Source: an uncultured Chloroflexia bacterium (GTDB lineage: Bacteria; Chloroflexota; Limnocylindria; Limnocylindrales; CSP1-4). From it: a stretch of DNA of 64,000 nt. The notes under the pieces were generated by a model. It ran no database searches. It was not told the origin of the DNA and saw nothing but the letters and a program-made list of their open reading frames with translations. The stretch covers positions 574,372-638,371 of the forward strand of contig CAWEYL010000003.1 in the NCBI GenBank assembly GCA_963813335.1. The letters are read 5' to 3'. Below are positions 31,902-64,000 of the stretch, in pieces; the first letter of the stretch is position 1; the number at the start of each line of letters is the position of its first letter. Made by a program: the position numbers and the translations under genes.

Positions 31902-32177
31902 ATCAACCGCATCTACAAGGCCCTGGCCGACCCGACCCGTCGACGCGTGCTGGCGATGCTCCGCGAGCGCGATATGACCGCGGGCGAGCTGGCGGCCGAA
32001 TTCGACCTCTCGTGGCCCACGATGTCCGGCCACTTCGCGGTCCTGCGCGACGCCGATCTCGTCGTCGCCGACCGAACCGGGACCAGCATCACCTACCGCC
32101 TCAACCTGTCGGTCCTCGAAGAGGCGCTCGCCGCCCTGATGGACACGTTCAAGCTCCAGCCGAAGGAGTCGCGATGA
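31902..32177 (+). CDS. sdpR: ArsR family autorepressor SdpR-like (apparent ATC start)
   Basis: YKALADPTRRRVL, MTAGEL, TMSGHF, YRLNLSVLEE; GGAGG 7 nt before ATC. Confidence 0.85.
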   Translation: MNRIYKALADPTRRRVLAMLRERDMTAGELAAEFDLSWPTMSGHFAVLRDADLVVADRTGTSITYRLNLSVLEEALAALMDTFKLQPKESR

Positions 32178-48680: not shown

Positions 48681-48756
48681 GCGCCTGTAGCTCAGTGGAT
48701 AGAGCGTTGGGTTCCGGACCCAAAGGTCGCAGGTTCGAGTCCTGTCGGGCGCGCCA
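48681..48756 (+). tRNA. tRNA-Arg(CCG)
   Basis: GCGCCTG..CGGGCGC-G-CCA, anticodon arm TTGGG-TTCCGGA-CCCAA, GGTTCGAGTCC; TATCAT -10 upstream. Confidence 0.97.
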
Positions 48757-48949
48757 TTACAGCGTGTGGCAACGCGAGTGCCAGTCCGTGCCGGTAGGCG
48801 GCCGGTGTGAGGCGGACACCGACGAACCGCGGCCCCTCCACCAGGATGCGCAGGGCGTTGTGGCGCGATCGGTTGGACCGACACGCGTGCTCGGTGCAGC
48901 GACTACCAGCGCGGCTGGTGACGACGCCGCAGACCGTGCACAGCTTCAC
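48692..48949 (-). pseudogene. Fused remnant: CxxC/CxxH phage-like N-terminus plus putative integrase C-terminus running through the tRNA
   Basis: KLCTVCG..SRCTEH joined to VGVRLTPAAYRHGLALALP.AVMARPTG. Confidence 0.55.
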
Positions 48950-49111
48950 CCGCGAATCGTCGGCGGGCTTGGTGATCTGGTCTATTCGCTCGGGGTGCTG
49001 GGCCTGCGGGGTCAGGCGTGAGCGCTACCCGCGCAGACGACAAGAGCACCCCGATGCGCCAGGGGCGACTCTTTCCGACACGATGGGCCCACGGGCCGCT
49101 ACCGTAGGCGC

Positions 49112-50083
49112 ATGAGAGCGGCAACCCACGACCGATATGGGGGGCCGGAGGTCCTCCGTGTCGAGGAAGTCGCGAAGCCCGAGCCCGCGGACGATGAGGT
49201 TCGGGTCAAAGTCCAAGCGTCCAGCGTCACGCGGACAGACACCGCGCTGCGCAGCGCCGAGTACTGGTTTGCGCGGGCGTTCACGGGCCTCCGACGGCCC
49301 AAGCGCCGGATCGCCGGAATGGAGTTCGCTGGCGTGATCGAGGCAATCGGCGCCTCGGTCACCACGTTCCACGTCGGCAAAGCCGTCTTCGGCATCAAGT
49401 CCGGTGCCAACGCCGAGTACCTGTGCGTCCAGGAGCGGGGCGTGCTAGCTCCCATGCCCGCGGACATGACCTTCGAGGAGGCGGCGGCGGTTGCGGATGG
49501 CGCGCTGACCGCGATGGCGTTCCTCCGGCAGGCGGCGCTCCAGCCGGATCAGCGCGTCCTCGTCTATGGCGCGACCGGGTCCATCGGCACGGCAGCCCTC
49601 CAGCTGGCCCGGCACCTCGGCGCCGAGGTGACAGCTGCCTGCGAGGCTGAGCACGCCGACCTCGCACGCTCGCTCGGTGCGACGACCGTGCTCGACCACC
49701 GCCTCGTCGACGTCACATCGGGAGAACGCCGGTATCACGTGATCCTCGACGCGGTTGGGAAGCTGTCGGCCTGGCGAGCCCGGCGCGCGCTCGTGCCCGC
49801 TGGGGTCTACCTCACAGCCGGCTCGGCTGGGTCACTGCTGCCGGTCCTCGTCCTGTGGCTCGTGACGCGAGGAACCGGGAGGCGGCGAGTCCGGCTCGGC
49901 GTGGCCGAGTACCGGAACGAGGACATCGTGACCTTGACCGGGCTCATCGATCGCGGCGCGTATCGGGCCGTCGTTGACCGGTCGTATCCGCTCGAGGATG
50001 TCGTCGAAGCTCACCGATACGTCGACACGCACCGCAAGATCGGCAACGTCGTCCTCGTCGTCCGTGGCGAGGCCGCGCCATGA
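49112..50083 (+). CDS. NAD(P)-dependent MDR (zinc-free quinone/alcohol) oxidoreductase
   Basis: RYGGPEVL, GATGSIG, VDRSYPL..AH..GNVV. Confidence 0.9.
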   Translation: MRAATHDRYGGPEVLRVEEVAKPEPADDEVRVKVQASSVTRTDTALRSAEYWFARAFTGLRRPKRRIAGMEFAGVIEAIGASVTTFHVGKAVFGIKSGANAEYLCVQERGVLAPMPADMTFEEAAAVADGALTAMAFLRQAALQPDQRVLVYGATGSIGTAALQLARHLGAEVTAACEAEHADLARSLGATTVLDHRLVDVTSGERRYHVILDAVGKLSAWRARRALVPAGVYLTAGSAGSLLPVLVLWLVTRGTGRRRVRLGVAEYRNEDIVTLTGLIDRGAYRAVVDRSYPLEDVVEAHRYVDTHRKIGNVVLVVRGEAAP

Positions 50084-50279
50084 CGCCCAGCTGGACACGC
50101 GTGACAGGGAAGCCCTAGTCCGGGACCGCGGCGACCCGGACACCGAGTCCGATGAGCGCCGTTCCTGTCCCTCATCGGGCCGTGCGACTGACCCGTGGCG
50201 CCGCGGACCGCGGCGCGTGACTGCGCCCTGCGCCGGGGCGAGATGCGGTGTTGTTCTCGGTTGCCTCGGTGAGCGTCAG

Positions 50280-50314
50280 GCTCGACGCAGGCACACTCCG
50301 TGCCTGCGTCGAGC
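50280..50314. terminator. 15-bp perfect hairpin between convergent genes
   Basis: GCTCGACGCAGGCAC-N5-GTGCCTGCGTCGAGC. Confidence 0.6.
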
Positions 50315-50323
50315 ACCGATGAC

Positions 50324-50821
50324 TCAGGCGTGGGCTTGCTGTTGCAGTCGGTCGGCCGTCGCGACATCTGCAGCGTCGGAGTACGTTCGGGGCCAGGTCC
50401 ATGCGGAGCGCAGGATGAAGGCCAGGATCAGCACCTCGATTCCGATGGAGAGGCCGTAGAAGGACGCCCACTCCCAGGTCGCCCCTGCCGCGTTGAACGC
50501 CGAGTAGGGGATGAGGAGCGATGCAACGACGAGGTTCGTGGCGCGGTTCACCCGGGCTGGCAGCGTCATGGAGAGCATCACCATCAGGGCCGGGATCGCC
50601 ACGGACGCGAGCATGAAGGTCAACAACGTCGGGCTGACGTCGAACTTCCAGACGAGGCCATGCAGGATGCCGTCGACGACGCCGGGCTTGTAGAGGTTGA
50701 AGAAGTCGACGTAGATGTAGAGGAACATGAAGCTGGTCCATGCGGCGGCGATCTTGGCCTGCACCGGGATCGGCGGGCCTGTCAAAGCGCTGTTGATGGG
50801 GACAGGTCGTGTCTTGTTCAT
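50324..50821 (-). CDS. DUF6326-like small membrane protein
   Basis: KIAAAW..MFLYIYVD..YKPG; AAGGAG RBS. Confidence 0.75.
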   Translation of the reverse strand: MNKTRPVPINSALTGPPIPVQAKIAAAWTSFMFLYIYVDFFNLYKPGVVDGILHGLVWKFDVSPTLLTFMLASVAIPALMVMLSMTLPARVNRATNLVVASLLIPYSAFNAAGATWEWASFYGLSIGIEVLILAFILRSAWTWPRTYSDAADVATADRLQQQAHA

Positions 50822-50917
50822 GGTTTGCTCCTTCGTTCGCTTGGTGAGCCGTCCGCCTGACAGCGGTGGCTGGTGTACGGGTGGCGCTGTGGTGGGTCGT
50901 GACACCTGGTCCGACGT

Positions 50918-51958
50918 TCAGACGGAGATGACGACCTTGCCGCGGGTGTGGCCGGCGCCGACGTAGCGGAGGGCCTCGGCCGCCTCGCTCAGCGGGTAGG
51001 TACGGTCGATGACCGGCGTGAGTTGCGCCGCCTCGAGAAGCTCGGCCAGATCAAGCAGGTCGCGGCGCTTCCTGAATGAGGTGAACGGCCGCAGGGTCTG
51101 GCGCGTGAACAGCGACCGCGCGCGCGCCTTGACGACCCGGCCCAGGGGTCCGACCCATCGGCCGCCTCGACCGCTGTTGGGGATGAGGGTGCCGGTGGGT
51201 GTGAGCGCCCGTCGGACCTCCGACAGGGACTGCGCTTCCACGTTGTCGAAGATGACGTCGTAGCGCAGCCCCGTCCGGGTGAAGTCCGTGCGCGTGTAAT
51301 CGATGACGTGGTCGGCGCCCACCGACCGGACCAGCTCCATGTTGCGGGTGCTGCATACCCCGGTCACCTCTGCCCCGAGCGCCTTGGCGATCTGCACGGC
51401 AAACGTCCCGACGCCGCCAGATGCGCCCGTGACGAGCACCGTGTGCCCCGGTTGCACGTGCGCGATGTCGCGCAGAGCCTGCAGTGCGGTGATCGCCGAG
51501 GTGGGCACCGCGGCTCCTTGCGCCATGGTCAGCCTGCCGGGTTTGCGCACCAGCTGGTCCGACGGCACGCTCGCGTACTCCGCCAGCGTCCCGGTGGTGC
51601 TCCAGCCGAACACCTCATCACCCGGTCGGAGGTCCGTGACCGCCGCGCCGACGGCTTCCACCACGCCGGCGACGTCCCTGCCCGGGATCGGGGACCGGGG
51701 CCGGCGAAGTCCGAACGCCAGCCGCACCATGTGCGGCGCGCCGGTCATGAGGAAGTAGTCGCCGGGGTGGACCGAAGCGGCGTGGACGCCGACCAGGACG
51801 TCGCCGTCCCCCACGACCGGCCGACCCACATCCGTGTACTCGAGCACCTCGGGAAGCCCGTAGCGGCGTTGCATCACAGCCTTCATCCCCGCCTCGGCCG
51901 GCAAGGCGTGGCTGACCAGGGCTTGGCCGCGGTCACTGGTTGTTCCCATTGCCTGCAT
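50918..51958 (-). CDS. NAD(P)-dependent MDR oxidoreductase
   Basis: GASGGVGTFAVQIAK, PVIDRTYPL, RGKVVI. Confidence 0.92.
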   Translation of the reverse strand: MQAMGTTSDRGQALVSHALPAEAGMKAVMQRRYGLPEVLEYTDVGRPVVGDGDVLVGVHAASVHPGDYFLMTGAPHMVRLAFGLRRPRSPIPGRDVAGVVEAVGAAVTDLRPGDEVFGWSTTGTLAEYASVPSDQLVRKPGRLTMAQGAAVPTSAITALQALRDIAHVQPGHTVLVTGASGGVGTFAVQIAKALGAEVTGVCSTRNMELVRSVGADHVIDYTRTDFTRTGLRYDVIFDNVEAQSLSEVRRALTPTGTLIPNSGRGGRWVGPLGRVVKARARSLFTRQTLRPFTSFRKRRDLLDLAELLEAAQLTPVIDRTYPLSEAAEALRYVGAGHTRGKVVISV

Positions 51959-51986
51959 TGATCTCTCCTCGTGTGCTGCGTTGGTG

Positions 51987-52012
51987 CTTATGGCATAAGC
52001 TTATGGCATAAG
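51987..52012. promoter_or_regulatory. Two abutting palindromic TetR operators
   Basis: CTTATG-G-CATAAG twice between divergent genes. Confidence 0.75.
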
Positions 52013-52046
52013 GTATCATGGCGTCAAGGGCATTCGAGGAGAACAC

Positions 52047-52712
52047 GTGATGGCACGCCGCACGACTCAGAAGCGAGCGCCGCTCACCCGGGACCGCGTG
52101 CTGCGCGCGGCGCTGGAGCTCGCCGACGAGGGCGACACCGCGGCGCTGACGATGCAGCGGATCGGGCAGCGGCTCGGCGTGGAGGCGATGTCGCTCTACC
52201 GACACGTTCGCAACAAGGACGACATCCTCGACGGGATCGTCGACCTCGTCTTCGCCGAGATCGAGCTGCCGGCAGATCGCTCGAACTGGCGAACGGTGCT
52301 CCGTGCCCAAGCGATCTCGACCCGCGCGGCCCTGCGCCGGCATCCTTGGGCGATCACGCTCATGGAATCGCGATTGACGCCCGGCCCGGCCAACTTCCGC
52401 ACACACGAGGACACCATCACCGTCCTGCTCGACGCCGGGTGCTCGGCGGTCATGGCGGTACATGCCTACAACCTTCTCGACAGCTACGTGCTCGGGTTCG
52501 CGCTGCAGGAGGTCAACTTCCCCTTCAGCAACGCCGAGGAGCTGGCAGCCATGAGCGAGGAGGTGCTCGCCAACCTGCAGGCGGACGAGTACCCGAACTC
52601 TGCGCGCGTCGCGAGGGAGCTCCTCACGTCCGGCTTCGACTACGCCGACGAGTTCGAGTTTGGGCTCGACCTCATCCTCGACGCCCTCGGGCCGGTCCTG
52701 CCGGGAGCCTGA
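52047..52712 (+). CDS. TetR family regulator (TetR_C type)
   Basis: LTMQRIGQRLGVEAMSLYRHVRNK, FEFGLDLILD. Confidence 0.93.
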   Translation: MMARRTTQKRAPLTRDRVLRAALELADEGDTAALTMQRIGQRLGVEAMSLYRHVRNKDDILDGIVDLVFAEIELPADRSNWRTVLRAQAISTRAALRRHPWAITLMESRLTPGPANFRTHEDTITVLLDAGCSAVMAVHAYNLLDSYVLGFALQEVNFPFSNAEELAAMSEEVLANLQADEYPNSARVARELLTSGFDYADEFEFGLDLILDALGPVLPGA

Positions 52713-52845
52713 TCGCCGGGCGACCGGTCAAGCGGGCCGGGCCCACGGCGGGTCCCAGCCTGCGCCGACGGACGGCTACTACCTGCTGGCACGAGTGATC
52801 ACTGCGGCAATCGTTGCGGTAGCCCAGCGCTCGGCCGGTGCGAAT

Positions 52846-52900
52846 TCAGCTGGGCTCGAGGCTCGCCACCACCAGCCAGCCCTCGGCCCGGCCGTGGTGA
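52846..52900 (-). pseudogene. C-terminal remnant of the island HTH gene
   Basis: GRAEGWLVVASLEPS* matches GRAEGWLFVAELEPS in the 55089-55412 ORF. Confidence 0.65.
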
Positions 52901-52904
52901 CCGC

Positions 52905-53279
52905 CTACGGATACGAGGTCCAGGCCAACCAGGCCGTGGCAGCGTTCCATCCCAGCCCGACGACGATGAGGAACTTGTCGTACAGCCCCGAGTACGTCGG
53001 CAGGCCGATGAGGTTGAAGGCGAAGAGACCGACCGCGGCGATGACGCTGACCCAGCGAAGCGTCTGCCCGGACAACGTCACGGACAGGACGACCATGACG
53101 ATCGGAATCAGCATCAGGACGGCGACGAACATCAGCGCCGCCGGGACCATCTCCTGCTTGAGGCCGCCGAACTGGCCCGGGGTGGCGTCGCCGCTCCAGA
53201 ACCGCAAGACGTCCCCCAGCAGGTAGGTGAGCATCAGGGCTACCCACAGCGCTGACAGCTTGATCTGCACCTCTGGCAT
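52905..53279 (-). CDS. DUF6326-like small membrane protein (second copy)
   Basis: KLSALWVALMLTYLLGD..IPIVMVVLS. Confidence 0.7.
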   Translation of the reverse strand: MPEVQIKLSALWVALMLTYLLGDVLRFWSGDATPGQFGGLKQEMVPAALMFVAVLMLIPIVMVVLSVTLSGQTLRWVSVIAAVGLFAFNLIGLPTYSGLYDKFLIVVGLGWNAATAWLAWTSYP

Positions 53280-53404
53280 CGATCGGCTCCGTTCTCGATC
53301 AAGTGAGCTTTGGGGTTGAAGGCCATGCCTCGCGTCGATCCACCGGCTCGGTGGGCGCTGAACGGATCTGCCCGTCGGCATCGGCTCGTTCATGCGGCCA
53401 CCCC

Positions 53405-54379
53405 TCAGGCCACTGCCCGATCGATCGCGATGACCACGGTCCCTCGCGCATGTCCTGCTGCGACACGCCCGATCGCCTTGGGCGCCTCTCGCAGTGGCCA
53501 GGTCCCGGCGATCACCGGTTTGACCTTCCCCGCCTCGACGAGGTCCTTGAGGACCAGCAGGTCAGCTCGGTTCTCGAACTTGGGGGACGGTTTGCCCTGC
53601 TGGCGCACAAACATCGACACGATCGCGAGCCGGATCACGCGACCGATCGCGCCGCCGGCGTGTCCGCCCCCGTTCGAGAGCAGCTTCCCGTTGGAGGCGA
53701 GGGCTCGCCTCGTCGCCGACATGGAGTGGTCCCCCACGTTGTCGAGGATGAGGTCGTAGCGCCGTCCGCCCTTCCTGAAGTCCTCCTTCGTGTAGTCGAT
53801 GACGTGGTCGGCGCCGAGCGAGCGGACCAGCTCCACGTTCTTCGTGCTGCATACGCCGGTCACCTCGGCACCGAACGCCTTGGCGATCTGAACGGCGAAC
53901 GTGCCCACGCCTCCGGATGCCCCGTTGATGAGGACCTTCAACCCGGGCTGGAGGTGTCCGTCATCGCGCAGGAGCTGGAGTGCGGTCGTCGCGGACACGC
54001 CGACGGCGGCCGCCTGGTCGAACGTGAGATTGGCTGGCTTGAGCGCGAAGTGGTCCTCGCTCGCTGACGCGTACTCAGCGAAGGCGCCCATGCACCACCC
54101 GAACACGTCGTCACCGGGGCGTAGTCCGTTCACGTCCTTGCCAACCGCTTCGACCGTCCCCGCGATGTCCGTCCCTGGAACACGGTTCCTCGGCTTGCGG
54201 AGTCCGGTCGCCAGCCGCATGAGGAATGGCGAGCCCGTCATGACGATCACGTCACCGACATGGATCGACGCGGCATGGACACGGACCAGGACTTCGCCGT
54301 CGCCGATCTCGGGACGATCGATGTCCCGTGACTCCAGGACCTCGGCCGCGCCGTACCGGTCCTGAACGATGGCTTGCAT
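53405..54379 (-). CDS. NAD(P)-dependent MDR oxidoreductase (paralog of 50918-51958)
   Basis: GASGGVGTFAVQIAK, GADHVIDYT; AGGAG RBS. Confidence 0.92.
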   Translation of the reverse strand: MQAIVQDRYGAAEVLESRDIDRPEIGDGEVLVRVHAASIHVGDVIVMTGSPFLMRLATGLRKPRNRVPGTDIAGTVEAVGKDVNGLRPGDDVFGWCMGAFAEYASASEDHFALKPANLTFDQAAAVGVSATTALQLLRDDGHLQPGLKVLINGASGGVGTFAVQIAKAFGAEVTGVCSTKNVELVRSLGADHVIDYTKEDFRKGGRRYDLILDNVGDHSMSATRRALASNGKLLSNGGGHAGGAIGRVIRLAIVSMFVRQQGKPSPKFENRADLLVLKDLVEAGKVKPVIAGTWPLREAPKAIGRVAAGHARGTVVIAIDRAVA

Positions 54380-54397
54380 GGATGGAGTCTCCTGTGG

Positions 54398-54441
54398 CTT
54401 TACGATGTAAAGTTGTCGCATCGGACTTTACGCTGTAAAGT
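54398..54441. promoter_or_regulatory. Two palindromic TetR operators
   Basis: CTTTAC-GAT-GTAAAG (54398-54412) and ACTTTAC-GCT-GTAAAGT (54425-54441). Confidence 0.75.
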
Positions 54442-54495
54442 GGGTGAATGTCAACCCCGGAATCGTGCGGTTGACCGAGTCCCGGAGGAGGGCCT

Positions 54496-55218
54496 ATGAC
54501 GCACACGAGCAAGCGAGCACAGCGACGCGCCCCGCTGAGCCGGGACCTCGTACTCGACACCGCGGTCAAGCTCGCCGATCGGGGTGGGCTCGCGTCCCTG
54601 AGCATGCGGAACCTCGGCCAGGAGCTCGGGGTCGAGGCGATGGCCCTCTACTACCACTTCGCCAACAAGGACGAGGTGATCGACGGGATGGTCGATCTCG
54701 TCTTCAGCGAGATCGATCTGCCTGCCAGCGGAGCCGACTGGAAGACCGCCATGCGTCAACGGGCGATCTCGCTCCGAGACGCGTTGCTGCGCCACCGCTG
54801 GGCAATCGGCCTGATGGAGTCGCGGCGAAAGCCAGGGCCGGCGAACCTGCGCCACCACGACGCGGTGATCGGCACGCTGCGGTCGGCAGGCCTCGACATG
54901 CCGACGATCGCGCACGCGTACTCGCTCTTGGACAGCTACATCTACGGTTTCGCCCTGTTTCTGGTGAACCTCCCATTCGATCCCTCGGAGGAGGTCGCGG
55001 AGTTGGGCCAGGTCACGCTCCGGGCGTTCCCCCTCGACGCCTACCCCAACCTCGTCGCGTACATCTCAGCGATGAGGCCCGGCTACGACTACGGGGACGA
55101 ATTCGAGTACGGTCTCGACCTGGTACTTGACGGCCTCGGGAGCGCAGCGGGATCTTCACGATCTGAGCTCGGCTCCAGCTCTGCGACGAACAGCCACCCC
55201 TCCGCCCGCCCTCGGTAG
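54496..55218 (+). CDS. TetR family regulator (paralog of 52047-52712)
   Basis: LSMRNLGQELGVEAMALYYHFANK, FEYGLDLVLD. Confidence 0.92.
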   Translation: MTHTSKRAQRRAPLSRDLVLDTAVKLADRGGLASLSMRNLGQELGVEAMALYYHFANKDEVIDGMVDLVFSEIDLPASGADWKTAMRQRAISLRDALLRHRWAIGLMESRRKPGPANLRHHDAVIGTLRSAGLDMPTIAHAYSLLDSYIYGFALFLVNLPFDPSEEVAELGQVTLRAFPLDAYPNLVAYISAMRPGYDYGDEFEYGLDLVLDGLGSAAGSSRSELGSSSATNSHPSARPR

Positions 55219-55412
55219 ATCAGCTGCTCGGTACTGAGACCAGATCGTGCTCGCAGGTCCGCGAGATGCCGCTTCGCTGTACTAGGCCGGATGCCAACCC
55301 GCGCTGCGGCGTCGGACACGGATCCGCCGACCTCGACGAAGGCGGCGAGGACGTCGACCTGACGGGCGGTCCGAGTCGTAAGAGGCTCGCCGCGTAGGCG
55401 TCCGTCCCTCAT
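55089..55412 (-). CDS. Small HTH DNA-binding protein of the integrated element
   Basis: TARQVDVL..AAARVGIRPSTAKRHLADLR; ATG overlaps the TGA of the putative integrase tail. Confidence 0.65.
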   Translation of the reverse strand: MRDGRLRGEPLTTRTARQVDVLAAFVEVGGSVSDAAARVGIRPSTAKRHLADLRARSGLSTEQLIYRGRAEGWLFVAELEPSSDREDPAALPRPSSTRSRPYSNSSP

Positions 55413-55578
55413 GCACGCAACCCGGCCGCGGCCAGCCACTCATCGCGGCCCTCGATCGGGATGCGGTAGGTGTAGGTTGAAATCGCGCGCCCAACACCTG
55501 TCGGGCGCGCCATTACAGCCTCTTCCGGCAGCGCCAGCACCAATCCGTTGGCATAGGCCGCCGCGGTCAGCCGGATCA
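55409..55578 (-). pseudogene. Putative integrase C-terminal remnant spanning the att core
   Basis: IRLTAAAYANGLVLALPEEAVMARPTGVGRAISTYTYRIPIEGRDEWL...*. Confidence 0.6.
55497..55519 (+). repeat. att-like direct repeat of the tRNA-Arg 3' end
   Basis: CCTGTCGGGCGCGCCATTACAGC identical to 48741-48763. Confidence 0.9.
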
Positions 55579-56208
55579 CGCGCGAGAAGGGCGTGGGTCG
55601 TCCACCGCGTTGACGAGGCGCAGCATGAGATCGACGGCCTCCGCGTCGGAGAGCCCGTTGTCGGTCAACGATCGCCACGTCGGGTACGCCATCGCATGAC
55701 CGATGGCGACCATCCTGAGGCGCTGGGTCGAGCCGTCGCCGGACCATCCACGAGCGAGAACCGAGAACAGCTCCGTCATGTGCTCGAGGAACGGTTCCAC
55801 GCCGCCGACCCGGATCATCGTCGGCAGATCCCGGATGACGTTCCCGACGACCCGGGCGTTCGCTCGGTAGTACGGGTAGAGCTCGCCGAGAGCGTGGCGG
55901 AGACGGGCAGGCGGATCGTCGATCGCGGCCCAGCCTTCCCCGGTGGGGATGTGCGTGACCTGGAGACCGTGCTCCGTGCAGGCGCGGAAGAGCGAGCCCA
56001 GGTCGGGAAAGTGGTGGTAGACGGTGTGGCGCTGGACGCCGGCCAGCTCGGCGACCGCGCTGATCGACGTCTGCGCCGGCCCGACCGTGCTGTGCAGCTC
56101 GAAGGCCGCCTTGGTGATGCGCTGGCGCGTTGCCTCCCATTGCACGCGCCGTTCTCGCATCTGGTATGCGCGTTTTCTCGTTGGCCTCTTGGGTACAGTC
56201 ATGTGCAC
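55576..56208 (-). CDS. TetR family regulator
   Basis: TSISAVAELAGVQRHTVYHHFP. Confidence 0.9.
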   Translation of the reverse strand: MHMTVPKRPTRKRAYQMRERRVQWEATRQRITKAAFELHSTVGPAQTSISAVAELAGVQRHTVYHHFPDLGSLFRACTEHGLQVTHIPTGEGWAAIDDPPARLRHALGELYPYYRANARVVGNVIRDLPTMIRVGGVEPFLEHMTELFSVLARGWSGDGSTQRLRMVAIGHAMAYPTWRSLTDNGLSDAEAVDLMLRLVNAVDDPRPSRA

Positions 56209-56254
56209 CGAAAGTATTGACGAACCCGCCCCGGATGGCTAGTCTCAATTTAGA

Positions 56255-56270
56255 TGCACAGTATTGTGCA
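56255..56270. promoter_or_regulatory. Palindromic operator candidate
   Basis: TGCACA-GTAT-TGTGCA between the divergent TetR and hydrolase genes. Confidence 0.6.
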
Positions 56271-56290
56271 CATAGCCCTGAGGCGGCAAG

Positions 56291-57376
56291 GTGCCAACGC
56301 TGAGGACTGCCCACTTCGTGATGGCACTCGTCGCCACGGTCGCGACGACCACCGCGCTCGGCGCCTGCAGTGGTCCTGCGGTGCCATTGCCACCGACATT
56401 CGCACCGACCGGTCCTGTCCGGACAAGCATCTCGACGTCGGGAGAGTCGACCGGCTCCAGCGAGCCAGCTTCGACCTCGGGATCACCCGAGACGACAAGC
56501 GCATTCGAGGCAGGCGCGAGGACGCTGCGGACGATCGCCGGGGCGAGCGCGGCAAGTTCGCACCTCACCATCGGCCGCGCGCTATCGGCCAACACCGTCT
56601 ACACGAGCCACGCGGCCGCGTACACGAGTGACGGTCTGACGATCTCGGCGGTCCTGCATCAGCCCGTGGCACCCGGTCCGCACCCGGGCGTGGTGCTCGT
56701 GCACGGCTTTGTCGACCCGGCGAACTACACCACCGGCGCGGAGTTGCAGCGCGAGCAGGATCATCTGGCGCGTGCCGGGTACGTCGTGCTCTACACGGAC
56801 CTGCGCGGGCTTGGGGGATCGGACCCAGCACCCAGTGGCCCACCGGATCTGGAGATGGGCGCGACGGACGATGTCATCAACGCCGTCAGCGCCCTGGCGG
56901 CCTCAGGTCTACCAGGCTTGGACGCAAAGAGGATCGGACTGCTCGGTCATTCGCTCGGCGGTCTGCTCGTCCTCAACGTACTCGTGGCCAAGCCGGGTCT
57001 CGTCGATGCTGTCGCGGCTTTCGCCCCCTCGGGCACGGATCGCTTCGAGGATGCCCAGCTGTACCTGGCCCATGACGACCCGATCTACCTGGCTCTCGTC
57101 GCCGCCCACGGCACGCCGACCACCGATCCCGAATACTGGGCGGACGTTTCACCGCGCACGTTCGTCGACCGAGTCACAGACCCGCTGCTGATCGTGCAAG
57201 GCGACGCCGACGTCGACGTCCCTCCTGCCGGGACGAAGGACACGGTCGCGATCTGGCAAAAGGCCGGTAAGGACGTCGAGTTCGTCACCCTCGAGGGTGA
57301 GGATCACGTGTTCCGAGCGCGCTGGAACGAAGCGATGGAAGCGGTGATCGCCTTCTTTGCCAAGCATCTCAAGTAG
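56291..57376 (+). CDS. Alpha/beta hydrolase (S9 peptidase-like) lipoprotein
   Basis: LGAC lipobox, GHSLGG, QGDADVDV, EDH. Confidence 0.85.
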   Translation: MPTLRTAHFVMALVATVATTTALGACSGPAVPLPPTFAPTGPVRTSISTSGESTGSSEPASTSGSPETTSAFEAGARTLRTIAGASAASSHLTIGRALSANTVYTSHAAAYTSDGLTISAVLHQPVAPGPHPGVVLVHGFVDPANYTTGAELQREQDHLARAGYVVLYTDLRGLGGSDPAPSGPPDLEMGATDDVINAVSALAASGLPGLDAKRIGLLGHSLGGLLVLNVLVAKPGLVDAVAAFAPSGTDRFEDAQLYLAHDDPIYLALVAAHGTPTTDPEYWADVSPRTFVDRVTDPLLIVQGDADVDVPPAGTKDTVAIWQKAGKDVEFVTLEGEDHVFRARWNEAMEAVIAFFAKHLK

Positions 57377-57477
57377 CGCGATCCGATCCGACCCGTGGTT
57401 CGCCCGTCGTGACCAGGGATACAGCCTTCAGCCCAGTCGCGCGGCCACGATTCGGCCATCGCGGCAGCCGCGCAGCC

Positions 57478-57507
57478 TCGCAGGTTCGAGTCCTGTCGGG
57501 CGCGCCA
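57478..57507 (+). repeat. att-like 30-bp duplicate of the tRNA-Arg 3' end
   Basis: TCGCAGGTTCGAGTCCTGTCGGGCGCGCCA identical to 48727-48756. Confidence 0.92.
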
Positions 57508-57616
57508 GAACGCATGTTCTATATCCGTTCCCAACGGCAACCGTCCTCGCCCCGTCGGGCTGACCTACGACATCGAGCCTCGCTCAGGGCCTCGGGGTGT
57601 CGCTCGAGTTCAGGGG

Positions 57617-57736
57617 CGGTTGCGCGATGAGGTCGATCTCGGGCAACTCGCCATCGAGATGAAAGGTGCGGTCGAGCGCACCGTCGAGCCAGTGACCGTC
57701 TCGGTTTGGCTGCGGCATCGAGCGTTCTGGGAATGA
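57617..57736 (+). pseudogene. C-terminal remnant of a membrane protein family
   Basis: RLRDEVDL.......VERTVEP..VSVWLR motif with no upstream coding body. Confidence 0.5.
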
Positions 57737-57988
57737 CTATCATCGGACGCCGTCCGGAGTCGAGTTCGAGACTCGACATCAGACCGAGACGGTCGCTGGC
57801 GCGGTCTATTCGCCTGCGGTCCTACGCCCGGGAGGCCATGCTCGTTAGCCACCCATGCGGCAGCCGCGGCGCGAGCTACGGAAATGGCGTGGCGCCAGGC
57901 CGGATTCCGCGAGTTCGTTTGTCATCGCCGTTGATGCTAGGTCGATGGTTCCGACGAAGGGTGTCGCGAGTTCGGGCCGATGCCCCGG

Positions 57989-58489
57989 TCAGAGAGCGCA
58001 GTTCTTGGAGACCCATACCGCGGTCGTCCCGATGTCCTTGGCGTTTCCGGCCATGCCATCGGTGATCGCTTTCTGTAGGGCAGCTTCGTCGACGGCCCCG
58101 CCGGCAGCGGCCTTCCCGATGTTGTCCATGACGTCGGCATAGGTGTTGGCGGCCTGTGCGATCTCTGCCGGTGCGTACTTCCGCATGTCAGCCGCAGCGG
58201 CCTGGAACTGTGCGCCCATGGTCGCGATATCGCCTGTCGGGTTATCGTTGAGCGCCTGGAGCTCCTTGAACGCGCCGCAGAAGTCGGTGGCGGTGCCTCC
58301 GGCGACCGGCGCCGAGGTCGATCCCTCGCTCGGTGCCGTCGATGCTTCGATCGACGAAGTCGGTTCCGATGCTGGCTGCGATGCCGTCGCCGCGGGTGGC
58401 CCACCGGATGGCCCTGAGCTCGCCGTCGACGAGCAGCCAGCCAGGGTAACCACGACCAGAAGCGAGAGCTGAGCGATGAGGCGCTTCAT
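57989..58489 (-). CDS. Lipoprotein, Ser/Thr linker plus small disulfide helical domain
   Basis: MKRLI...LAGC lipobox; DFC...NC; AAGGAG RBS. Confidence 0.8.
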   Translation of the reverse strand: MKRLIAQLSLLVVVTLAGCSSTASSGPSGGPPAATASQPASEPTSSIEASTAPSEGSTSAPVAGGTATDFCGAFKELQALNDNPTGDIATMGAQFQAAAADMRKYAPAEIAQAANTYADVMDNIGKAAAGGAVDEAALQKAITDGMAGNAKDIGTTAVWVSKNCAL

Positions 58490-58771
58490 GCCGAGTCTCC
58501 TTCGGGAATGCGGGACGGACTTGCCCCCGTGCGCCAGCCCGCCGCTGAGGCTGCAAGTATGGGCGTTGGCGGGCTTCCTGTCCGATCGTCGGTCGGGCAG
58601 GCTCGCGCGCCCTCCCCGACCAGTTTGCCCGGTGCGATGCCGCACCGCGGCCGATGGTCTTGGTCCTTGCATCGGCCCGCTGGACGGCCACACTGGTCCG
58701 ACGCGGCCGCCCTGGCCCAAACGACGCCGATCTCCCGTCCGCCACCGTCGCCGCGCAAGGAGGCCCGTCGA

Positions 58772-59344
58772 ATGCGCTTGATCCGTCCACCATGGCGCGG
58801 CCCGCGGGCCGTCTTCGTCACCCTCGTCGGAGTCGTCGCACTGTTCGTGGCCGCTGTCGCACCGGTGACCGTCGGAGCGGCAGCCACCGCACAGCCCGCT
58901 GCGCCTGTTGCGGCCGCGCCCCTCGCGCTCCCGACGACCACGGTGCACGGCGGGGGCTTCCAGCTCCACAGTGTCATGGATCCGAACTTCTGCGCCGAGG
59001 TCGGTGGCGGCGCGGCCGACCTGCGATCCGTGACCCTGGAGCCATGCGTCGCAGCCTCCGCACAGCGCTGGACATTCTCGTGGCTGGCGACCGGCCTCAA
59101 CCAGATGATCGAGACCCAGGGGATGTGCGTTGACGTGAGCGGCAGAAAGCCTGGCGACGGCGTCGCGGTCGCGGTCACCTACTGCAAGAACACCAAAGCG
59201 GAGAAGCTGACCTTCAGCCTGACCGGGCAGATCGAGTTCGCAAAGGGCTGCCTCTCGTTCCCCCGGAACGCCGCGGGCGCCGCGGTCTTCCTCGAGGCGT
59301 GCGATAGCATGAACAACAGGCAGTTCTGGAAGCTCTCCCAATAG
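58772..59344 (+). CDS. Secreted ricin-type beta-trefoil lectin
   Basis: Signal peptide; CxxV..C..QRW, CVDV, CL..C..QFW repeats; AAGGAGG RBS. Confidence 0.85.
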   Translation: MRLIRPPWRGPRAVFVTLVGVVALFVAAVAPVTVGAAATAQPAAPVAAAPLALPTTTVHGGGFQLHSVMDPNFCAEVGGGAADLRSVTLEPCVAASAQRWTFSWLATGLNQMIETQGMCVDVSGRKPGDGVAVAVTYCKNTKAEKLTFSLTGQIEFAKGCLSFPRNAAGAAVFLEACDSMNNRQFWKLSQ

Positions 59345-59536
59345 CGGTGGCCCGCGGATCGTGACGAATGTCGTCACGGACGGTCCCGGCACGACTCCGG
59401 CGGGCCGCTGCCAACCTTTTCGGTGGCGGGCCCCCGTGTCACGCGAAAGGGGGAATCGATGCGTGGACTGGCAAGAATCGTCGCCGACCGCCGTCCTTTC
59501 GGTGCCGTGAGCCCGCGACCAAGCTGGCCAAGCGAC

Positions 59537-60103
59537 ATGGAGATCCCTCAGCTGAATCGTCCCCGCGCCACCAAGACCTTCCTTCGGAGCACATTTCTCG
59601 TGCTCGGTCTCCTCGTGCCCGTCGGGTGCTCCGGCGCGGCCACCGGAACCCCCACGAATACCGATCCCGGCAGCGTGTCGGGGCCTGCGACCGTGAATCC
59701 CCAGGCGACCCCACCTGCCGGGACATCCCCACAGGCAGGCGCCCCCCTGCCTGCCGACCCGTGCGCGCCGACCGCCGCCGCCATCAAGTCGGTCGGCTGG
59801 TCGGTCATCAAGGCTGTGGCCGGCCCTGGCCCCGGCGGACCCAACACGCAATGCACCTTCCAGGCCGACCGCGGTGGGAACAGCTCCGACAACGGCTGGG
59901 TGGCGTACATTCCCGCGTCGCAGATGTCGGGCGAGTACCACGAGCCAGAAGCGATCACAGGCGTCGGGGTCGAGGCGTTCCGGGGTTCGCCCCAGAGCGG
60001 CGAGATCCTGGCCACAGGCGCCAGTCCTGGGTTCCGGCTGTTCGTGGCGAGCGGCGACGAGGACGCCCTCAAGTTCGCGCAGGCGCTCGTGAGCGGGAAT
60101 TGA
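59537..60103 (+). CDS. Putative lipoprotein
   Basis: Hydrophobic segment ending PVGC, Pro/Thr linker, DPC...QCTF. Confidence 0.65.
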   Translation: MEIPQLNRPRATKTFLRSTFLVLGLLVPVGCSGAATGTPTNTDPGSVSGPATVNPQATPPAGTSPQAGAPLPADPCAPTAAAIKSVGWSVIKAVAGPGPGGPNTQCTFQADRGGNSSDNGWVAYIPASQMSGEYHEPEAITGVGVEAFRGSPQSGEILATGASPGFRLFVASGDEDALKFAQALVSGN

Positions 60104-60336
60104 GCGTGGGCGGCAGGAACCAGGGGGGTTCCTCTCCTCGCAGGTGTCAGCCGCATGACGACCCCTCATGCCCGGCCGGAGCTGGCACATGGCGGCCGCA
60201 TCGATCGTCGCGATCGTCGCCACGCTGATCGCGGGTCTGCCGCCCGCGCTGGCGGACGGTGACGCGGGCCGATGACGCACAACCCATTCGCGGAAGGCGG
60301 CCATTCCCTGGGCCTCGGGCCGGCGAGGCAACCGGC

Positions 60337-63300
60337 CTAGGCGCAGGAGCCGCCGGCGAGCATCCCGGCCATCATCAGGAGCACGGCGACGATCGACCGA
60401 CCGGCCAGGCCCCCGATGTCGGCCGCCGCCAGACCGGCGGCGTAGGACGCGGCGTTAAAGATGTCCTGCTTGATGTTCGGGGCGGCGGTGAAGGAGCCGA
60501 GGGCCGCAGTTCCGGCGCCATAGACGTCCGCCCCGACGCACGCGTACTGCGGGATCACGCCCGGCGTCGCGATGCACAACGTCGAGATCATCGCGATCGA
60601 CGTCGTGATGAAGGCTGCGAGATCGTCGGCACCCTCCGGCTGGAGGCACTTGCTGTAATCCTTGCCGGCCCCGCGACCGTCGGCGCCGACCGCGGTCAAC
60701 GATCCCGTCGCAGGATCGACGAGCCACGCGGCCACGACATCGCCGGACGTCGGCACAAGCCGGTGGAAGTTCCAGTACTTGGTCGCGAGTGGCGAGAGAC
60801 TCGCCTTGCGGTCCGCCGCGAGGGCCGTCGAATCGATGGTCGCCAACGCCGGGATCAGGGTGAGGGCGAGCCCGTCGAGCTGATCGGCGGCACTCGCGGG
60901 GAAGAGCAGGGATTCGCGAACGCTCGCGCCGACCGATCGGCGCGCCGCGGCATCGAACGCGGCCATCCCGTCCGGGCCTACGCCGACCCAATCGTCGAGA
61001 CTCGGGACGATATCGGAGAGGTGGACGAGGTCCGTCGCCGTGACCGCTTCGGTCAGGATCGAGACTGAGAGCCCGACCGGTGTCGCGTCGATCGCGGGCT
61101 CGCGGCCGGCGACCGGTTCCGACATCGCCGCGAGGATGCCCGGGAACCGCCGCCAGCCCGTGGAGGCGGCGGCGATCGCCGCCGGGCCATCGGCCCATAC
61201 CTTGTCGAGCGGTTCGAATGTCAGCGCCGCCCCGATCAGGTCGTCGAGGAGTCGTGCGGTCGTGGTCCCGGGTTCGAAGCGGATCGTCTGGATCGCATCG
61301 AGCGCGGCGGTCGCCTCGGCGATCGCGGTGGCGTCGGCCGTCTCGTTCGGGACGTCACGGTCCGACGCCGGGACCCCGCCGAGTCGCCGGCGCATGACGC
61401 GGTCGCCGACGGTGACGGTGACGTAGACACCCGCGACGCCGGACGGCGCCGAACGGTCCGCAGGGGCGGGGACGTCGTACGCCAGCGTCGCCGGGCTCGC
61501 GGTCGACCCAGCGATGCCCACGCTCACGTCCCTCGACGTCGGGCCATCGGTCGGGGCCACGTACCGCAGCCGGTAGCCCGTCGAGGCGGCGGTCGCGACC
61601 CGGTCGGCGACGAACCCGCTGAGTCGCTCGGCGAGGTCGCTCGCCTTCGGGTCGAGGCGTTGGCCATGCGTGTCGGCCAGGATCGCCTCGGTCGCCGCCT
61701 TGTCAACCGACCCGACGGGGAGCACGGCGATAGGAACCCCCGCGCCACGGACCTGCCGGCGCAGGCCCGGGATCTGCTCCGGGAAGTCGCTCGCGACGTT
61801 GTCGCTGACGAGGATCACCGCCGAGGCCCCGGACGCCGGCACGGCCTGTCCGAGCGTGGTCCAGATGTCGGACGTCGAAGCCGCGCCGCCTGCGAATGCC
61901 GCCGTGAGGGCCGCCGCCTCAGGGGCCGCCCACCCGTCGTCGCTGGACGCCCCGCCGACCCCGATCACCTGGGTGGTGAACGGATGCCCGACGGCCGCTG
62001 TCGTGAGCGCGGTCGCGATCTTCGATTCGAAGGCGGCCCGGGCCTTCGCCGAGGGCCAGGAGCCGATCACGCTGCTGCTCGAGTCGTAGATGACGAGGAT
62101 CCGGATCGACGTCGGGGCGCTGTTGCCGATGAGTGTCACGGTTCGGGGCTGCCCGTCATCGGTAACTTCGAACGCCGATGCGGGCAGGCCGTCGATCGGC
62201 CGTCCATCGACGTCTCGCACGCTGACGGCGAGATCGACCGTCGGGAAGGTCGCGATCGACGCGGCCGCGGCGATCGTGGTCACCGTCGCGACGGTGGCTC
62301 CAGATGGCGGTGCCGCGAGGATCGGTCCAAGCGGGCCATCGAGTGCTCCGGATCCGTCCGACGCGGGCGTGACGAGCCCGCCGGCCAGGCTGATCGCGGT
62401 GCCGCCGACGATCTGGATCGTGCCGTCATCCGCATCGATCGCCTCGAGCCGCAGGACCGGCTGGCGCACGGGCACCTCGCTCCGCCGTCGCTGGAGCGTC
62501 TCGAGCGGGCTCCCCGGGACCCCGAACGCGAGCGTGAGATGACGCGCGGCCAGCTGGTCCGCCGGCCACGTCCCTCGCAGCACCTCGTGGAGCACCGTTC
62601 GATCAACTGTCGCGCCACGCGGCGGGTTAAACGCGACCTGGACACTTACGGTCACCTGTGGCATCACGGCCGCCGAGGCCGACACCATGCCGTTGGGCGC
62701 CGTGGTCAGGAGCGCTGTCCCGCCGACGGCAGTCGCCCATCGGGCGTCGGCGCCGTCGCCGAACGCCACGACCGGGATGCGGTCGGGCAGACCCGGGGCG
62801 ATCGTCTGAGCCGTCCGGAGCTCCGGCGGGAGAGCGGCGAGGACGGCCGAAGCGGCTCGGGCCGCCGCGGTCGGGGCGTCGTCCGGACCGTCGGTCAACC
62901 TCGGATGCCCGGCGTCGACGGTGTCCCACAGGGCCGCGAGTGCGCCGAGGTCTGGAGTGAAGGCCACCGGCTTGGCACCGCCGAACGCGAAGTCCGCCGG
63001 TCGATCCATCGAAAGCACCGTGCCGGTCACGCCCATGGTCCCGAGGAGCTCGACGAGGAGGTCGGCGCGCTCCCGCAGCGTGCCGCGACCCGAGGCGAGT
63101 GTCCCGCGCGCGCCCCAGCGCGCCTCTGTCAGCGGGTCGCCGGATCTCTGGCTCCCTGGCAGGATGGCGATGTGATCGCGGACGAATGACACGACCGCCG
63201 CAGGGTCGCCGGTCGCGACCGCCGCCGCGGCAAGCGTCGCGAGGTGATCCGGGCTCGCCCGGACGATGGCCCGGAGTCGTCGAAGGGCATCGAATGCGTC

Positions 63301-63471
63301 GGCCGGTGGCCCGGTCTGCGCCGGGCTCGCAGTCGCCGTCGGCGCGAATGTGCCGTTCACGGGTGGCTCCGGCGGGGCGGGCAGACAGCCGGCTGCGACG
63401 GCGCACCCGACGAGGGCAAGGAACGCCCGCCGATCGATCCGCGGACCGAACCAGATGCCGTCGATAGCCAT
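60337..63471 (-). CDS. Large Tat-type lipoprotein with VWA-like domain and hydrophobic Cys/Gly-rich C-terminus
   Basis: DRRAFL..AAGC signal; YDSSSS MIDAS-like motif; GL...FEVTDDG pre-VWA segment. Confidence 0.7.
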   Translation of the reverse strand: MAIDGIWFGPRIDRRAFLALVGCAVAAGCLPAPPEPPVNGTFAPTATASPAQTGPPADAFDALRRLRAIVRASPDHLATLAAAAVATGDPAAVVSFVRDHIAILPGSQRSGDPLTEARWGARGTLASGRGTLRERADLLVELLGTMGVTGTVLSMDRPADFAFGGAKPVAFTPDLGALAALWDTVDAGHPRLTDGPDDAPTAAARAASAVLAALPPELRTAQTIAPGLPDRIPVVAFGDGADARWATAVGGTALLTTAPNGMVSASAAVMPQVTVSVQVAFNPPRGATVDRTVLHEVLRGTWPADQLAARHLTLAFGVPGSPLETLQRRRSEVPVRQPVLRLEAIDADDGTIQIVGGTAISLAGGLVTPASDGSGALDGPLGPILAAPPSGATVATVTTIAAAASIATFPTVDLAVSVRDVDGRPIDGLPASAFEVTDDGQPRTVTLIGNSAPTSIRILVIYDSSSSVIGSWPSAKARAAFESKIATALTTAAVGHPFTTQVIGVGGASSDDGWAAPEAAALTAAFAGGAASTSDIWTTLGQAVPASGASAVILVSDNVASDFPEQIPGLRRQVRGAGVPIAVLPVGSVDKAATEAILADTHGQRLDPKASDLAERLSGFVADRVATAASTGYRLRYVAPTDGPTSRDVSVGIAGSTASPATLAYDVPAPADRSAPSGVAGVYVTVTVGDRVMRRRLGGVPASDRDVPNETADATAIAEATAALDAIQTIRFEPGTTTARLLDDLIGAALTFEPLDKVWADGPAAIAAASTGWRRFPGILAAMSEPVAGREPAIDATPVGLSVSILTEAVTATDLVHLSDIVPSLDDWVGVGPDGMAAFDAAARRSVGASVRESLLFPASAADQLDGLALTLIPALATIDSTALAADRKASLSPLATKYWNFHRLVPTSGDVVAAWLVDPATGSLTAVGADGRGAGKDYSKCLQPEGADDLAAFITTSIAMISTLCIATPGVIPQYACVGADVYGAGTAALGSFTAAPNIKQDIFNAASYAAGLAAADIGGLAGRSIVAVLLMMAGMLAGGSCA

Positions 63472-63572
63472 CGGATCGATGGTAGCGCCCGGAAGCGTTC
63501 GCCTCCGATCCGATCCTGTCAATGATCCACTCCGATGCCCGGGCGTGATCAGCCGCAAATCGCCTCCATACG

Positions 63573-63845
63573 CTATCCGATCAGCGACGCGCCTCTTCGG
63601 CTCCCTCGATCGGAATCACCTTTGAATCCCGAGTGGGTACCCCCACGTCTGACTCCTGTCGGGCGCGCCACGGCAACCCTTTCGGGCAGCGCCAGCGCCA
63701 AACCGTGCGCGTGGGCCGCCGCGGTCAGCCAGACACCGACGATTTCGGGGACAGCGACGGTGATCCGCTCGTAGATGGCGTGCATCAGGTCTGCCTTCTC
63801 CTCCGGTGCGTCTGCGGTCTGGAAGGACTCGCCCAGAGTGCGCTG
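63573..63845 (-). pseudogene. Putative integrase C-terminal remnant spanning the att core
   Basis: EEKADLMHAIYERITVAVPEIVGVWLTAAAHAHGLALALPERVAVARPTG; homologous to the remnants at 48.8 and 55.5 kb. Confidence 0.6.
63654..63670 (+). repeat. att-like direct repeat of the tRNA-Arg 3' end
   Basis: TCCTGTCGGGCGCGCCA identical to 48740-48756. Confidence 0.85.
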
Positions 63846-64000
63846 CCTTTCAGCTGTCGCCCGCAGATGCTTTCGAGGTGGCCGCCGAGCAGGTCGACCC
63901 GATTCCAGTTCTTCGGCCCCCGCCGCGAGTCTTGGAGCGCCGCGCCTCCTCCACGCGGGCCAGAGCTTGTCCGAGACGACACCCCAAACCCTGCAGCGGG

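Follow-up and report, generated by a model that had tools for sequence, protein, structure and literature searches.

A tandem array behind a tRNA-Arg(CCG) gene and the divergent serine recombinase family that probably built it

The 64,000-nucleotide (nt) stretch of DNA considered here and referred to as the window (GenBank assembly GCA_963813335.1 of an uncultured bacterium, contig CAWEYL010000003.1, positions 574,372 to 638,371) ends in a tandem array of segments that begins at a tRNA-Arg(CCG) gene and is punctuated by copies of the 3' end of that gene. It is very likely an accretion array, built by integrative elements that carry a large serine recombinase (SR) and insert into tRNA-Arg(CCG), elements that are mostly decayed in this genome. 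Judging from their arms and from the reading frames that enter them, the repeats are best understood as the attachment sites of an SR whose gene reads across its own attP site. What is new about the array is the enzyme family and the target; the way in which the islands build up is of a known kind.

The last 16 nt of the tRNA gene, the exact 16-mer CCTGTCGGGCGCGCCA, constitute the core shared by the repeats; the window contains four copies of this 16-mer, the further ones being located at 55497, 57492, and 63655, and the chance expectation from 100 dinucleotide-preserving shuffles is 0.00. In a repeat search, the copies of the tRNA 3' end formed a single family (D4), all members of which lie on the same strand (48727-48756, 55483-55512, 57478-57507, the latter identical at 30/30 positions, and 63641-63670). 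The original prediction, made from the sequence alone, had proposed a tandem array at a tRNA hotspot, and the four same-strand copies, with none expected by chance, bear it out. Its exact-match lengths (23 bp at 55497, that is, the 16-nt core plus 7 nt past the tRNA end; 30 bp at 57478; and 17 bp at 63654) are likewise correct, and its sizes of ~6.7, 2.0, and 6.2 kb for the three complete segments, here numbered 1 to 3 from the tRNA and followed by an incomplete segment 4, agree with the repeat positions. The final base of the window is also the end of its contig (C3 of the source genome, G000), and contig C5 of the same assembly carries, on its plus strand, a fifth exact core copy at 6032 and a degenerate sixth one at ~10119. 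The array therefore probably runs on across an assembly gap, extending from 48.7 kb to the contig end and continuing on contig C5 to ~10.1 kb. Core copies are present in 56 of 61 genomes of the genus, often with 2 to 5 of them clustered on one strand.

Minus-strand remnants of an SR gene were located behind three of the four copies in the window:

48757..48964, minus strand: SR stub 1; when the tRNA antisense is included (from 48695), its alignment covers residues 403-496 of the recombinase from the related genome G007, with 53% identity.
55513..55576, minus strand: SR stub 2, which together with the core represents the last 27 codons.
63671..64000, minus strand: SR stub 4, a pseudogene cut by the contig end.

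The stubs that start after 48757, 55513, and 63671 are mutually homologous (repeat families D3 and D5), and their minus-strand reading ends in ..GLALALP..(M/V)ARPTG, with the final codons formed by the antisense of the tRNA end. They align only with the last 27-94 residues of the 496-amino-acid (aa) serine recombinase, which upholds the suggestion that the junction remnants derive from one gene family, being homologous to each other and to the C terminus of one SR. The visible part of stub 4 consists of pieces in three frames (residues 420-490 in frame -3, 261-310 in frame -1, and 260-270 in frame -2, with ~110 codons absent) and reads as a frameshifted, internally deleted pseudogene. A tblastn search of the whole assembly with the stub returned the three stubs and nothing else. 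The Pfam scan of the 48.7-64.0 kb region covered open reading frames (ORFs) supported by the G+C content of third codon positions (GC3) and other long ORFs, 16 of the 130 mechanical ORFs of at least 50 aa, and none of the scanned ORFs matched recombinase, tyrosine integrase (PF00589), or phage structural families. No match to the resolvase domain (PF00239) was detected anywhere in the source genome, the assembly of which is 81% complete. With no such Pfam match in the 16 ORFs and with only C-terminal stubs at the junctions, the claim that none of the complete segments holds an intact recombinase stands.

The stub search in 41 related genomes (relatives being represented by one genome per species) produced matches in 17 of them, the source genome included. 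At the 12 non-self places (E values of 4.2e-8 or below), the open frames are 51-255 aa long, the sole exception being a frame of 501 aa in G007. This ORF, 496 aa from its ATG, abuts tRNA-Arg(CCG) and matches the Pfam Resolvase family (PF00239) with an E value of 8.5e-10. Among the relatives' loci, the stub or gene is located at tRNA-Arg(CCG) in 10 of 11 and at tRNA-Arg(TCG) in the remaining one. In that last case (locus L010 of genome G023), a family SR stub adjoins tRNA-Arg(TCG) in place of tRNA-Arg(CCG), which suggests target switching between arginine isoacceptors.

Beyond these genomes, 554 of 8000 scored candidate proteins matched the SR at E values of 1e-5 or below. The best 120 of these 554 are 456-518 aa long and 65-100% identical to the query, and at least two of the matches listed have source names that point to Chloroflexota or Limnocylindrales. 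In an alignment of 22 homologues, the residues R21, S23, Q27, D92, R93, and R96, corresponding to the catalytic R-x-S-T-x-x-Q and D-R-x-x-R motifs, are invariant. In the AlphaFold (AF2) model, helical, beta-ribbon, and long-helix segments follow one another in this order C-terminally of the catalytic domain. The nine best Foldseek matches of this model in the PDB are all full-length serine integrases, including those of PhiC31 and Bxb1 (E values of 2.6e-10 to 2.9e-8), over 554-634 aligned columns but with TM-scores of only ~0.2. A PDB sequence search with the SR profile returned 3g13 as its sole match (E value of 0.0036). The SR is accordingly read as a divergent large serine recombinase. A tblastn search of 50,697 GenBank phage records with the full SR gave no match; the IMG/VR search gave 22 loci. 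When full-length orthologues are defined by at least 70% identity over residues 1-396 (the N-terminal 397 aa serving as the query), close ones are found in 4 of 131 congeneric genomes, G007, G146, G104, and G061. The predicted full-length gene ending in ..GLALALP..ARPTG thus exists, in these four genomes and on IMG/VR contigs, although not in the source assembly. SR genes occur in many decay states and are nearly always cut back to the last 27-190 codons. The full-length SR gene located at the tRNA of locus L031 (contig C8 of G071) has been split into at least 5 frames, an intermediate stage of decay. Supplements aside, searches of the literature yielded no paper describing this SR family or the tRNA-Arg(CCG) arrays.

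The anatomy of the sites was compared in 41 core copies from 20 oriented sequences of 19 genomes, namely, the window, contig C5, and 18 relatives. A simple classifier for the right-hand element arm (P') misses indel variants, so left-arm classes alone were used and right-flank identity was taken from tblastn. The left arm is that of the tRNA T-arm (referred to as B) in 18 copies, comprising 17 tRNA genes and one junction of the window, J2. In 19 copies it is a conserved element arm (P: ..GTAGGTTGnnAnCGCGCGyCCAACA), and in 4 copies it belongs to neither class. The P arm and the core form an imperfect palindrome, GCGCGCCCaACA-CC-TGTCGGGCGCGC, around a central CC. Sites of the B-P' type are found at tRNAs, those of the P-P' type between cassettes, and at array ends the P arm is followed by a flank motif. 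The copies discussed here are arranged as follows:

48681..48756, plus strand: tRNA-Arg(CCG) gene (ARAGORN), the last 16 nt of which (48741-48756) are the shared core.
48741-48756, plus strand: core of junction J0, an attL site consisting of the B arm (tRNA T-arm), CC, and the P' arm.
55472..55512, plus strand: junction J1, with the canonical P arm at 55472-55496, CC at 55497-55498, and the rest of the core to 55512, followed by the P' flank.
57478..57526, plus strand: junction J2, matching the tRNA 3' end at 30/30 positions (left arm of the B type) and followed by the ~20-nt G.AC..ATGTTCTAT motif.
63641..63670, plus strand: junction J3, with the core (63655) and a left arm that is neither B nor P (24/30 to the tRNA), followed by the P' flank.
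Contig C5, plus strand: the copy at 6032, a P arm followed by the ATGTTCTAT motif, and the copy at ~10119, a P arm followed by a shortened core.

By its arms, J1 is an attP-like P-P' junction between two cassettes, and J2 is an attB-like pseudo-site. J2 has the only B-type arm among the 24 core copies outside tRNA genes, 19 of which are of the P type. The symmetry of the palindrome places the probable crossover at the central CC, the T-loop/T-stem junction of the tRNA, although no position can be mapped within the shared 16 nt. On two IMG/VR contigs (L057 and L058), the SR is 67-68% identical and lies at an intact P-CC-P' site with no tRNA. The SR ORFs of these contigs end in ..ARPTGVG..TTY.IPIEGRDEWL, a tail that is encoded by the P arm. 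The conservation of ~45 nt of the P arm is explained by the continuation of the SR ORF through it.

Two other sequence features recur next to the core. The ~20-nt G.AC..ATGTTCTAT motif is found 3' of the core in five contexts (window positions 57508-57526, positions 6048-6066 of contig C5 of G000, position 2965 of L026, position 11431 of L024, and L023), the left arms of which differ, being a tRNA, a tRNA fragment, or a P arm. A conserved native flank was considered and rejected, as only ~20 nt are common and the DNA beyond them is unrelated; the motif could be a native attB arm that was taken along, or it could terminate a second class of elements. Iteron-like repeats (CATGAGTCGCGACAT) directly follow the core of tRNA-Arg(CCG) in L020 (G047) and L029 (G062), and also occur after a P-core junction (joined locus of G104, position 31952) and after tRNA-Pro(CGG) in L037 (G118). 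These may represent a small inserted element or an array of binding sites.

Complete SR-bearing elements are of more than one kind. The 13.3-kb element of G104 encodes the SR, a PD-(D/E)XK nuclease, a Prim-Pol/AAA_25 helicase, an HNH protein, an Lnt-like protein, and an amidase and carries two helix-turn-helix (HTH) genes and the P arm. The 36-kb element of G007 contains the SR, Rhs-repeat ORFs, a tyrosine integrase, and a DNA methylase gene adjoining the P arm. The IMG/VR contig L058 carries a primase-helicase, the SR, attP, a ParB-methyltransferase, a small terminase, and also a tyrosine integrase. These contents indicate that the helpers are phage-like and small replicative (Prim-Pol) elements.

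The favored reading is as follows. The SR gene is located at the tRNA-proximal end of each element, where it reads toward the tRNA and crosses attP. Integration would generate an attL site (tRNA arm and P') and an attR site (P and the native flank) and would swap the last ~25-30 residues of the SR for a tail that the tRNA antisense encodes. Elements would become stacked through further insertions or through composite transfers, with P-P' junctions left between them. Family-wide, SR-less cassettes consisting of a P' stub, cargo, a small HTH gene, and a P arm would have moved between species, with rare SR-bearing elements, including phage-like and small Prim-Pol replicons, as the helpers. Because every SR gene in the source genome is a 3' stub, nothing here would move by itself. 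Segment 1 is made up of two fused TetR-regulated oxidoreductase cassettes; with its P' end and its canonical P arm both retained, it may be excisable if an adjacent helper or a recombinase acting in trans is available. Segments 2 to 4, in which one arm was lost or never present, are probably fixed.

The clearest case of spread between species is an SR-less cassette of 4.95 kb, which contains a 61-codon SR stub, genes for an FtsX/MacB permease, an alcohol dehydrogenase (ADH), and a TetR regulator, an HTH gene, and a P arm. Its copies, one in G010 (array position 2), two in G044 (positions 1 and 3), and one in G060 (position 1), come from three species and share 99.2-99.8% identity. The flanks of these three arrays (2.8 kb upstream and 3 kb downstream) gave no mutual blastn match, and flanking homology was accordingly rejected as the cause of the sharing. 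On the right, the core is where the identity ends in all four copies, and on the left it is where the identity begins in three of them; in the copy at position 3 of G044, 14 of the 20 differences fall within the first 83 nt. As the same 61-codon stub is found in all four copies at >99% identity, the truncation must have preceded the spread. The prediction that recombinase-less cassettes are moved therefore holds at the level of the family, where they spread after the loss of the SR (4.95 kb, 99.2-99.8%, three species). This spread may proceed in trans, in cis together with a helper that is subsequently lost, or to some extent through homologous exchange.

The cargo of the window itself is listed below.

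49112..52712: cassette A cargo, with a quinone-oxidoreductase/ADH gene (49112-50083, plus strand), a DUF6326 gene (50324-50905, minus strand), an ADH gene (50918-51958, minus strand), and a TetR gene (52047-52712, plus strand).
52849..53010, minus strand: vestigial small HTH gene, marking the fused, deleted boundary of cassettes A and B.
52905..55418: cassette B, with a DUF6326-like gene (52905-53561, minus strand), an ADH gene (53405-54421, minus strand), a TetR gene (54496-55218, plus strand), and an intact small HTH gene (55167-55418, minus strand).
55576..57376: segment 2 cargo, with a TetR gene (55576-56208, minus strand) and an S9/alpha-beta hydrolase gene (56291-57376, plus strand).
57527..63640: segment 3 cargo, with genes for a ricin-B lectin-domain protein (58508-59344, plus strand) and an unknown ORF (59368-60228, plus strand).
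60337-63558, minus strand: segment 3 gene for a 1073-aa protein, GC3 of 0.86.

Segment 1 contains the DUF6326-ADH-TetR module twice (51171-52273 and 53667-54725, 73% identical) with the decayed HTH gene between the two copies. The pairing of the modules and the presence of one intact and one vestigial HTH gene indicate that it consists of two cassettes whose P-P' junction has been deleted. A small HTH gene is found just inside the P arm at many loci, and that of cassette B is 70% identical to the HTH gene of the 4.95-kb cassette; its protein gave only subthreshold matches to HTH families in Pfam and none in NCBIfam. The right end of segment 2 has neither an HTH gene nor a P arm. Segment 3 is nearly without DNA matches in the 130 congeneric genomes, and its 1073-aa protein belongs to no Pfam family, with a weak VWA-like match in NCBIfam and ESM Atlas neighbors named VWFA. 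The first 1-6 kb of contig C5 encode an enolase-superfamily enzyme, GntR, and a sugar ABC transporter.

Cassette A (49152-52898) has also been shared, being 93% identical to its copy in G126, 96% in G065, 92% in G118, and 90% in both G120 and G086, compared to 73-82% for the core genes upstream of the tRNA in the same genomes. The identity to the G126 and G065 copies stops at 52898. In four of the five genomes the copy lies at tRNA-Pro(CGG), so cargo modules appear to be exchanged between docking systems. At these tRNA-Pro(CGG) loci (L035-L038, L054, and L055, in G126, G065, G118, and G120), the small HTH gene next to the module is intact in G126, G065, and G120. A ~15-nt repeat of the tRNA-Pro(CGG) 3' end is found distal to the cassette A copy in G118 and G120, and in G120 the tRNA is adjoined by an SR-like stub with 30% identity. 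These loci give the impression of a second docking system, parallel to the tRNA-Arg one and sharing cargo with it.

Several observations weigh against the accretion of SR-bearing elements. The AF2 model is of moderate confidence (mean pLDDT, the predicted local distance difference test score, of 65.8), and the Pfam Recombinase and zinc-ribbon models found no match in the G007 SR. The source assembly being 81% complete, a recombinase could be present and unassembled, and contig C3 stops inside stub 4. The tRNA-type arm of J2 is not expected from serine attP x attB recombination, and J3 fits neither arm class, so part of the array must have arisen differently. Both canonical arms are found in only one of the three complete segments, segment 1. 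The predicted retention of att arms accordingly applies to segment 1 (P' on the left, canonical P on the right) and fails for segment 2, which has P' but no P arm, and for segment 3, which lies between the J2 pseudo-site and the atypical J3. An attP x attL reaction is outside the repertoire of canonical serine integrases, and stacking at an occupied site would therefore need a promiscuous enzyme or composite transfer. The divergence of the first 83 nt in the third G044 copy suggests that homologous exchange within stubs also shuffles cassettes. Finally, no direct evidence of excision or circular forms came from 20 public runs, in the short Logan contigs of which (at most 0.29 of the sampled words) there were no usable joints; each joint had one side of at most 42 letters, mostly <30, at paralogous stretches.

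Some of these points are shared by the strongest competing explanation, namely, that the array is a collection of inert scars, a graveyard of decayed prophages or islands. Here, SR-less cassettes would never move alone, and the near-identical cassettes of different species would have come in with complete SR-bearing elements that later decayed alike, or through homologous recombination between conserved stubs and arms. It is a possible explanation, although a clearly less probable one. The absence of canonical arm pairs from segments 2 to 4 is in its favor, and for these segments the serially decayed islands that the original prediction offered as its alternative fit at least as well. It also gains from the lack of an SR in the source genome, from the many decay states of SR genes, such as the frameshifted full-length copy in G071, and from the third G044 copy, whose divergent start suggests homologous exchange. 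However, independent decay does not readily account for the same 61-codon stub in four 4.95-kb copies with >99% identity, for contexts of these copies that have no common flanking homology beyond the tRNA and the arms, or for the occurrence of this cassette twice in one array.

It is quite improbable that these are classical tRNA islands of tyrosine integrases, with the repeats as their att identity blocks and the stubs as unrelated neighbors. The 3' ends of tRNA genes are the usual targets of such enzymes, J0 and J2 form a perfect 30-bp direct repeat, and tyrosine integrases are encoded within the G007 island and L058. However, none of the 16 scanned ORFs of the window matched PF00589, at 10 of 11 loci the gene conserved at the junction codes for a serine recombinase, and the distal copies have a palindromic partner arm around CC (19 of 24 being of the P type) and not an extended tRNA identity.

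A true integron-like platform, with a resident recombinase and a docking site capturing promoterless single-gene cassettes under a common promoter, is scarcely credible. Stacked cassettes, a recurring site, and cassettes that far outnumber recombinase genes do recall such a system, and the original prediction called the array integron-like. That comparison had to be abandoned, as the sites correspond to attP, attL, and attR halves of a serine integrase and not to attC or attI, and no resident recombinase was found at the locus or elsewhere in the assembly. In addition, the cassettes contain multiple genes on both strands with their own TetR regulators, the complete elements are phage- or plasmid-like, and none of the 20 loci examined has a conserved chromosomal recombinase gene adjoining the tRNA.

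An artifact of chimeric metagenome assembly or binning, which would account for both repeats and shared cassettes, can be virtually dismissed. The source assembly is indeed fragmentary (7 contigs, 81% complete), and several relatives' contigs end at these repeats. The contigs G045:C8, G070:C2, and G000:C3 end within ~350 bases of a core copy (60-76 in G045 and G070), which fits assemblies broken by repeats or strain heterogeneity. However, a 701-nt contig from a soil metagenome (X1 record 1) runs through the tRNA end and J0 in the window arrangement with 0 differences, and arrays of the same design lie inside contigs of 106-2904 kb in many genomes.

The accretion of SR-bearing elements has a precedent in the Dehalococcoides ssrA islands, which are the closest known system. 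These islands are described as lying in tandem behind ssrA with a ~20-bp direct repeat of its 3' end as the boundary. The gene for the serine recombinase DsiB adjoins attL and is read from the reverse strand, insertion occurs within the T-loop region, and of the 31 islands 15 lack an integration module; these were proposed to be cis-mobilizable and moved by accretion (PMC3146451). The tRNA-Arg locus works alike without being a member of that system. The two have in common the tandem arrangement, an insertion point placed in the T-loop region, the direct repeats of an RNA-gene 3' end, an SR gene at attL in reverse orientation, and many units without a recombinase; judging by the source names of the SR homologues, they probably also share the host phylum, Chloroflexota. 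They differ in the target, which is tRNA-Arg(CCG) (10/11 loci) or tRNA-Arg(TCG) (1/11) and not ssrA. No DsiA-type small second recombinase or six-gene integration module was seen among the ten ORFs scanned in the G104 element, and the recombinase ORF spans attP.

Serine integrases mostly target protein-coding genes. Like those of phiC31, Bxb1, and the A118/LI type, the SR has the catalytic motif, and in the structure model it may follow the order of catalytic domain, recombinase domain, and zinc ribbon with coiled coil. The short att sites, the inverted half-sites, and the non-palindromic central dinucleotide are further common features, and some carriers are phage-like. Unlike those of phage serine integrases, the target is a tRNA gene whose 3' end is restored by the element, and attB and attP have a 16-nt identical block. 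The literature search found no described family of tRNA-targeting serine integrases of this kind.

Recombinase-less, att-flanked segments in tandem with autonomous elements are also known among streptococcal cis-mobilizable elements (CIMEs) along with integrative and conjugative elements (ICEs), as well as in the staphylococcal cassette chromosome (psiSCC/SCC), where they are thought to be mobilized by a neighbor or helper. The stacking of recombinase-less segments at one site is common to CIMEs, psiSCC/SCC, and the present arrays. Streptococcal CIMEs, however, depend on tyrosine recombinases and conjugation, and SCC depends on CcrAB at rlmH, whereas here the target is a tRNA gene and the vehicles are seemingly phage-like or Prim-Pol replicons. 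In mycobacteriophages with integration-dependent immunity, attP lies within the repressor gene. The present family similarly has attP within the 3' end of a coding gene, with integration altering the C terminus, but the gene is that of the integrase itself.

Large serine recombinases have one documented precedent for stacking islands in tandem at a small-RNA gene, and the tRNA-Arg(CCG) array would add another, probably from the same phylum; a tRNA target has rarely been reported for such enzymes. One published integrase-mining pipeline is reported to demand a Resolvase match followed by a Recombinase match (PMC12884075). Since the SR family escapes the Pfam Recombinase and zinc-ribbon models, such a pipeline would discard it. 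If the sites work as read, they would provide a compact attP/attB pair with a universal, conserved attB (the tRNA 3' end) that would be of practical interest for engineering the genomes of soil lineages not yet in culture. As different species carry recombinase-less cassettes that are nearly identical, these offer a testable case of trans or cis mobilization, and an integrase gene that runs across its own attP offers a testable case of an integration-dependent change of the C terminus. The family-level evidence for the mobilization of recombinase-less cassettes merits experiment.

A more far-reaching picture, which is put forward only tentatively, is that of a genus-wide cassette economy based on serine integrases. 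A shared pool of SR-less cassettes would be moved in trans between species by rare phage- or plasmid-borne SRs, with cassette ends re-fitted for tRNA-Arg(CCG) or tRNA-Pro(CGG), the HTH protein acting as a directionality or regulatory factor, and the tail swap serving as a switch between the integrating and resident states. If this picture is true, the arrays would be a functional analogue of integrons that arose from serine-recombinase chemistry at tRNA genes.

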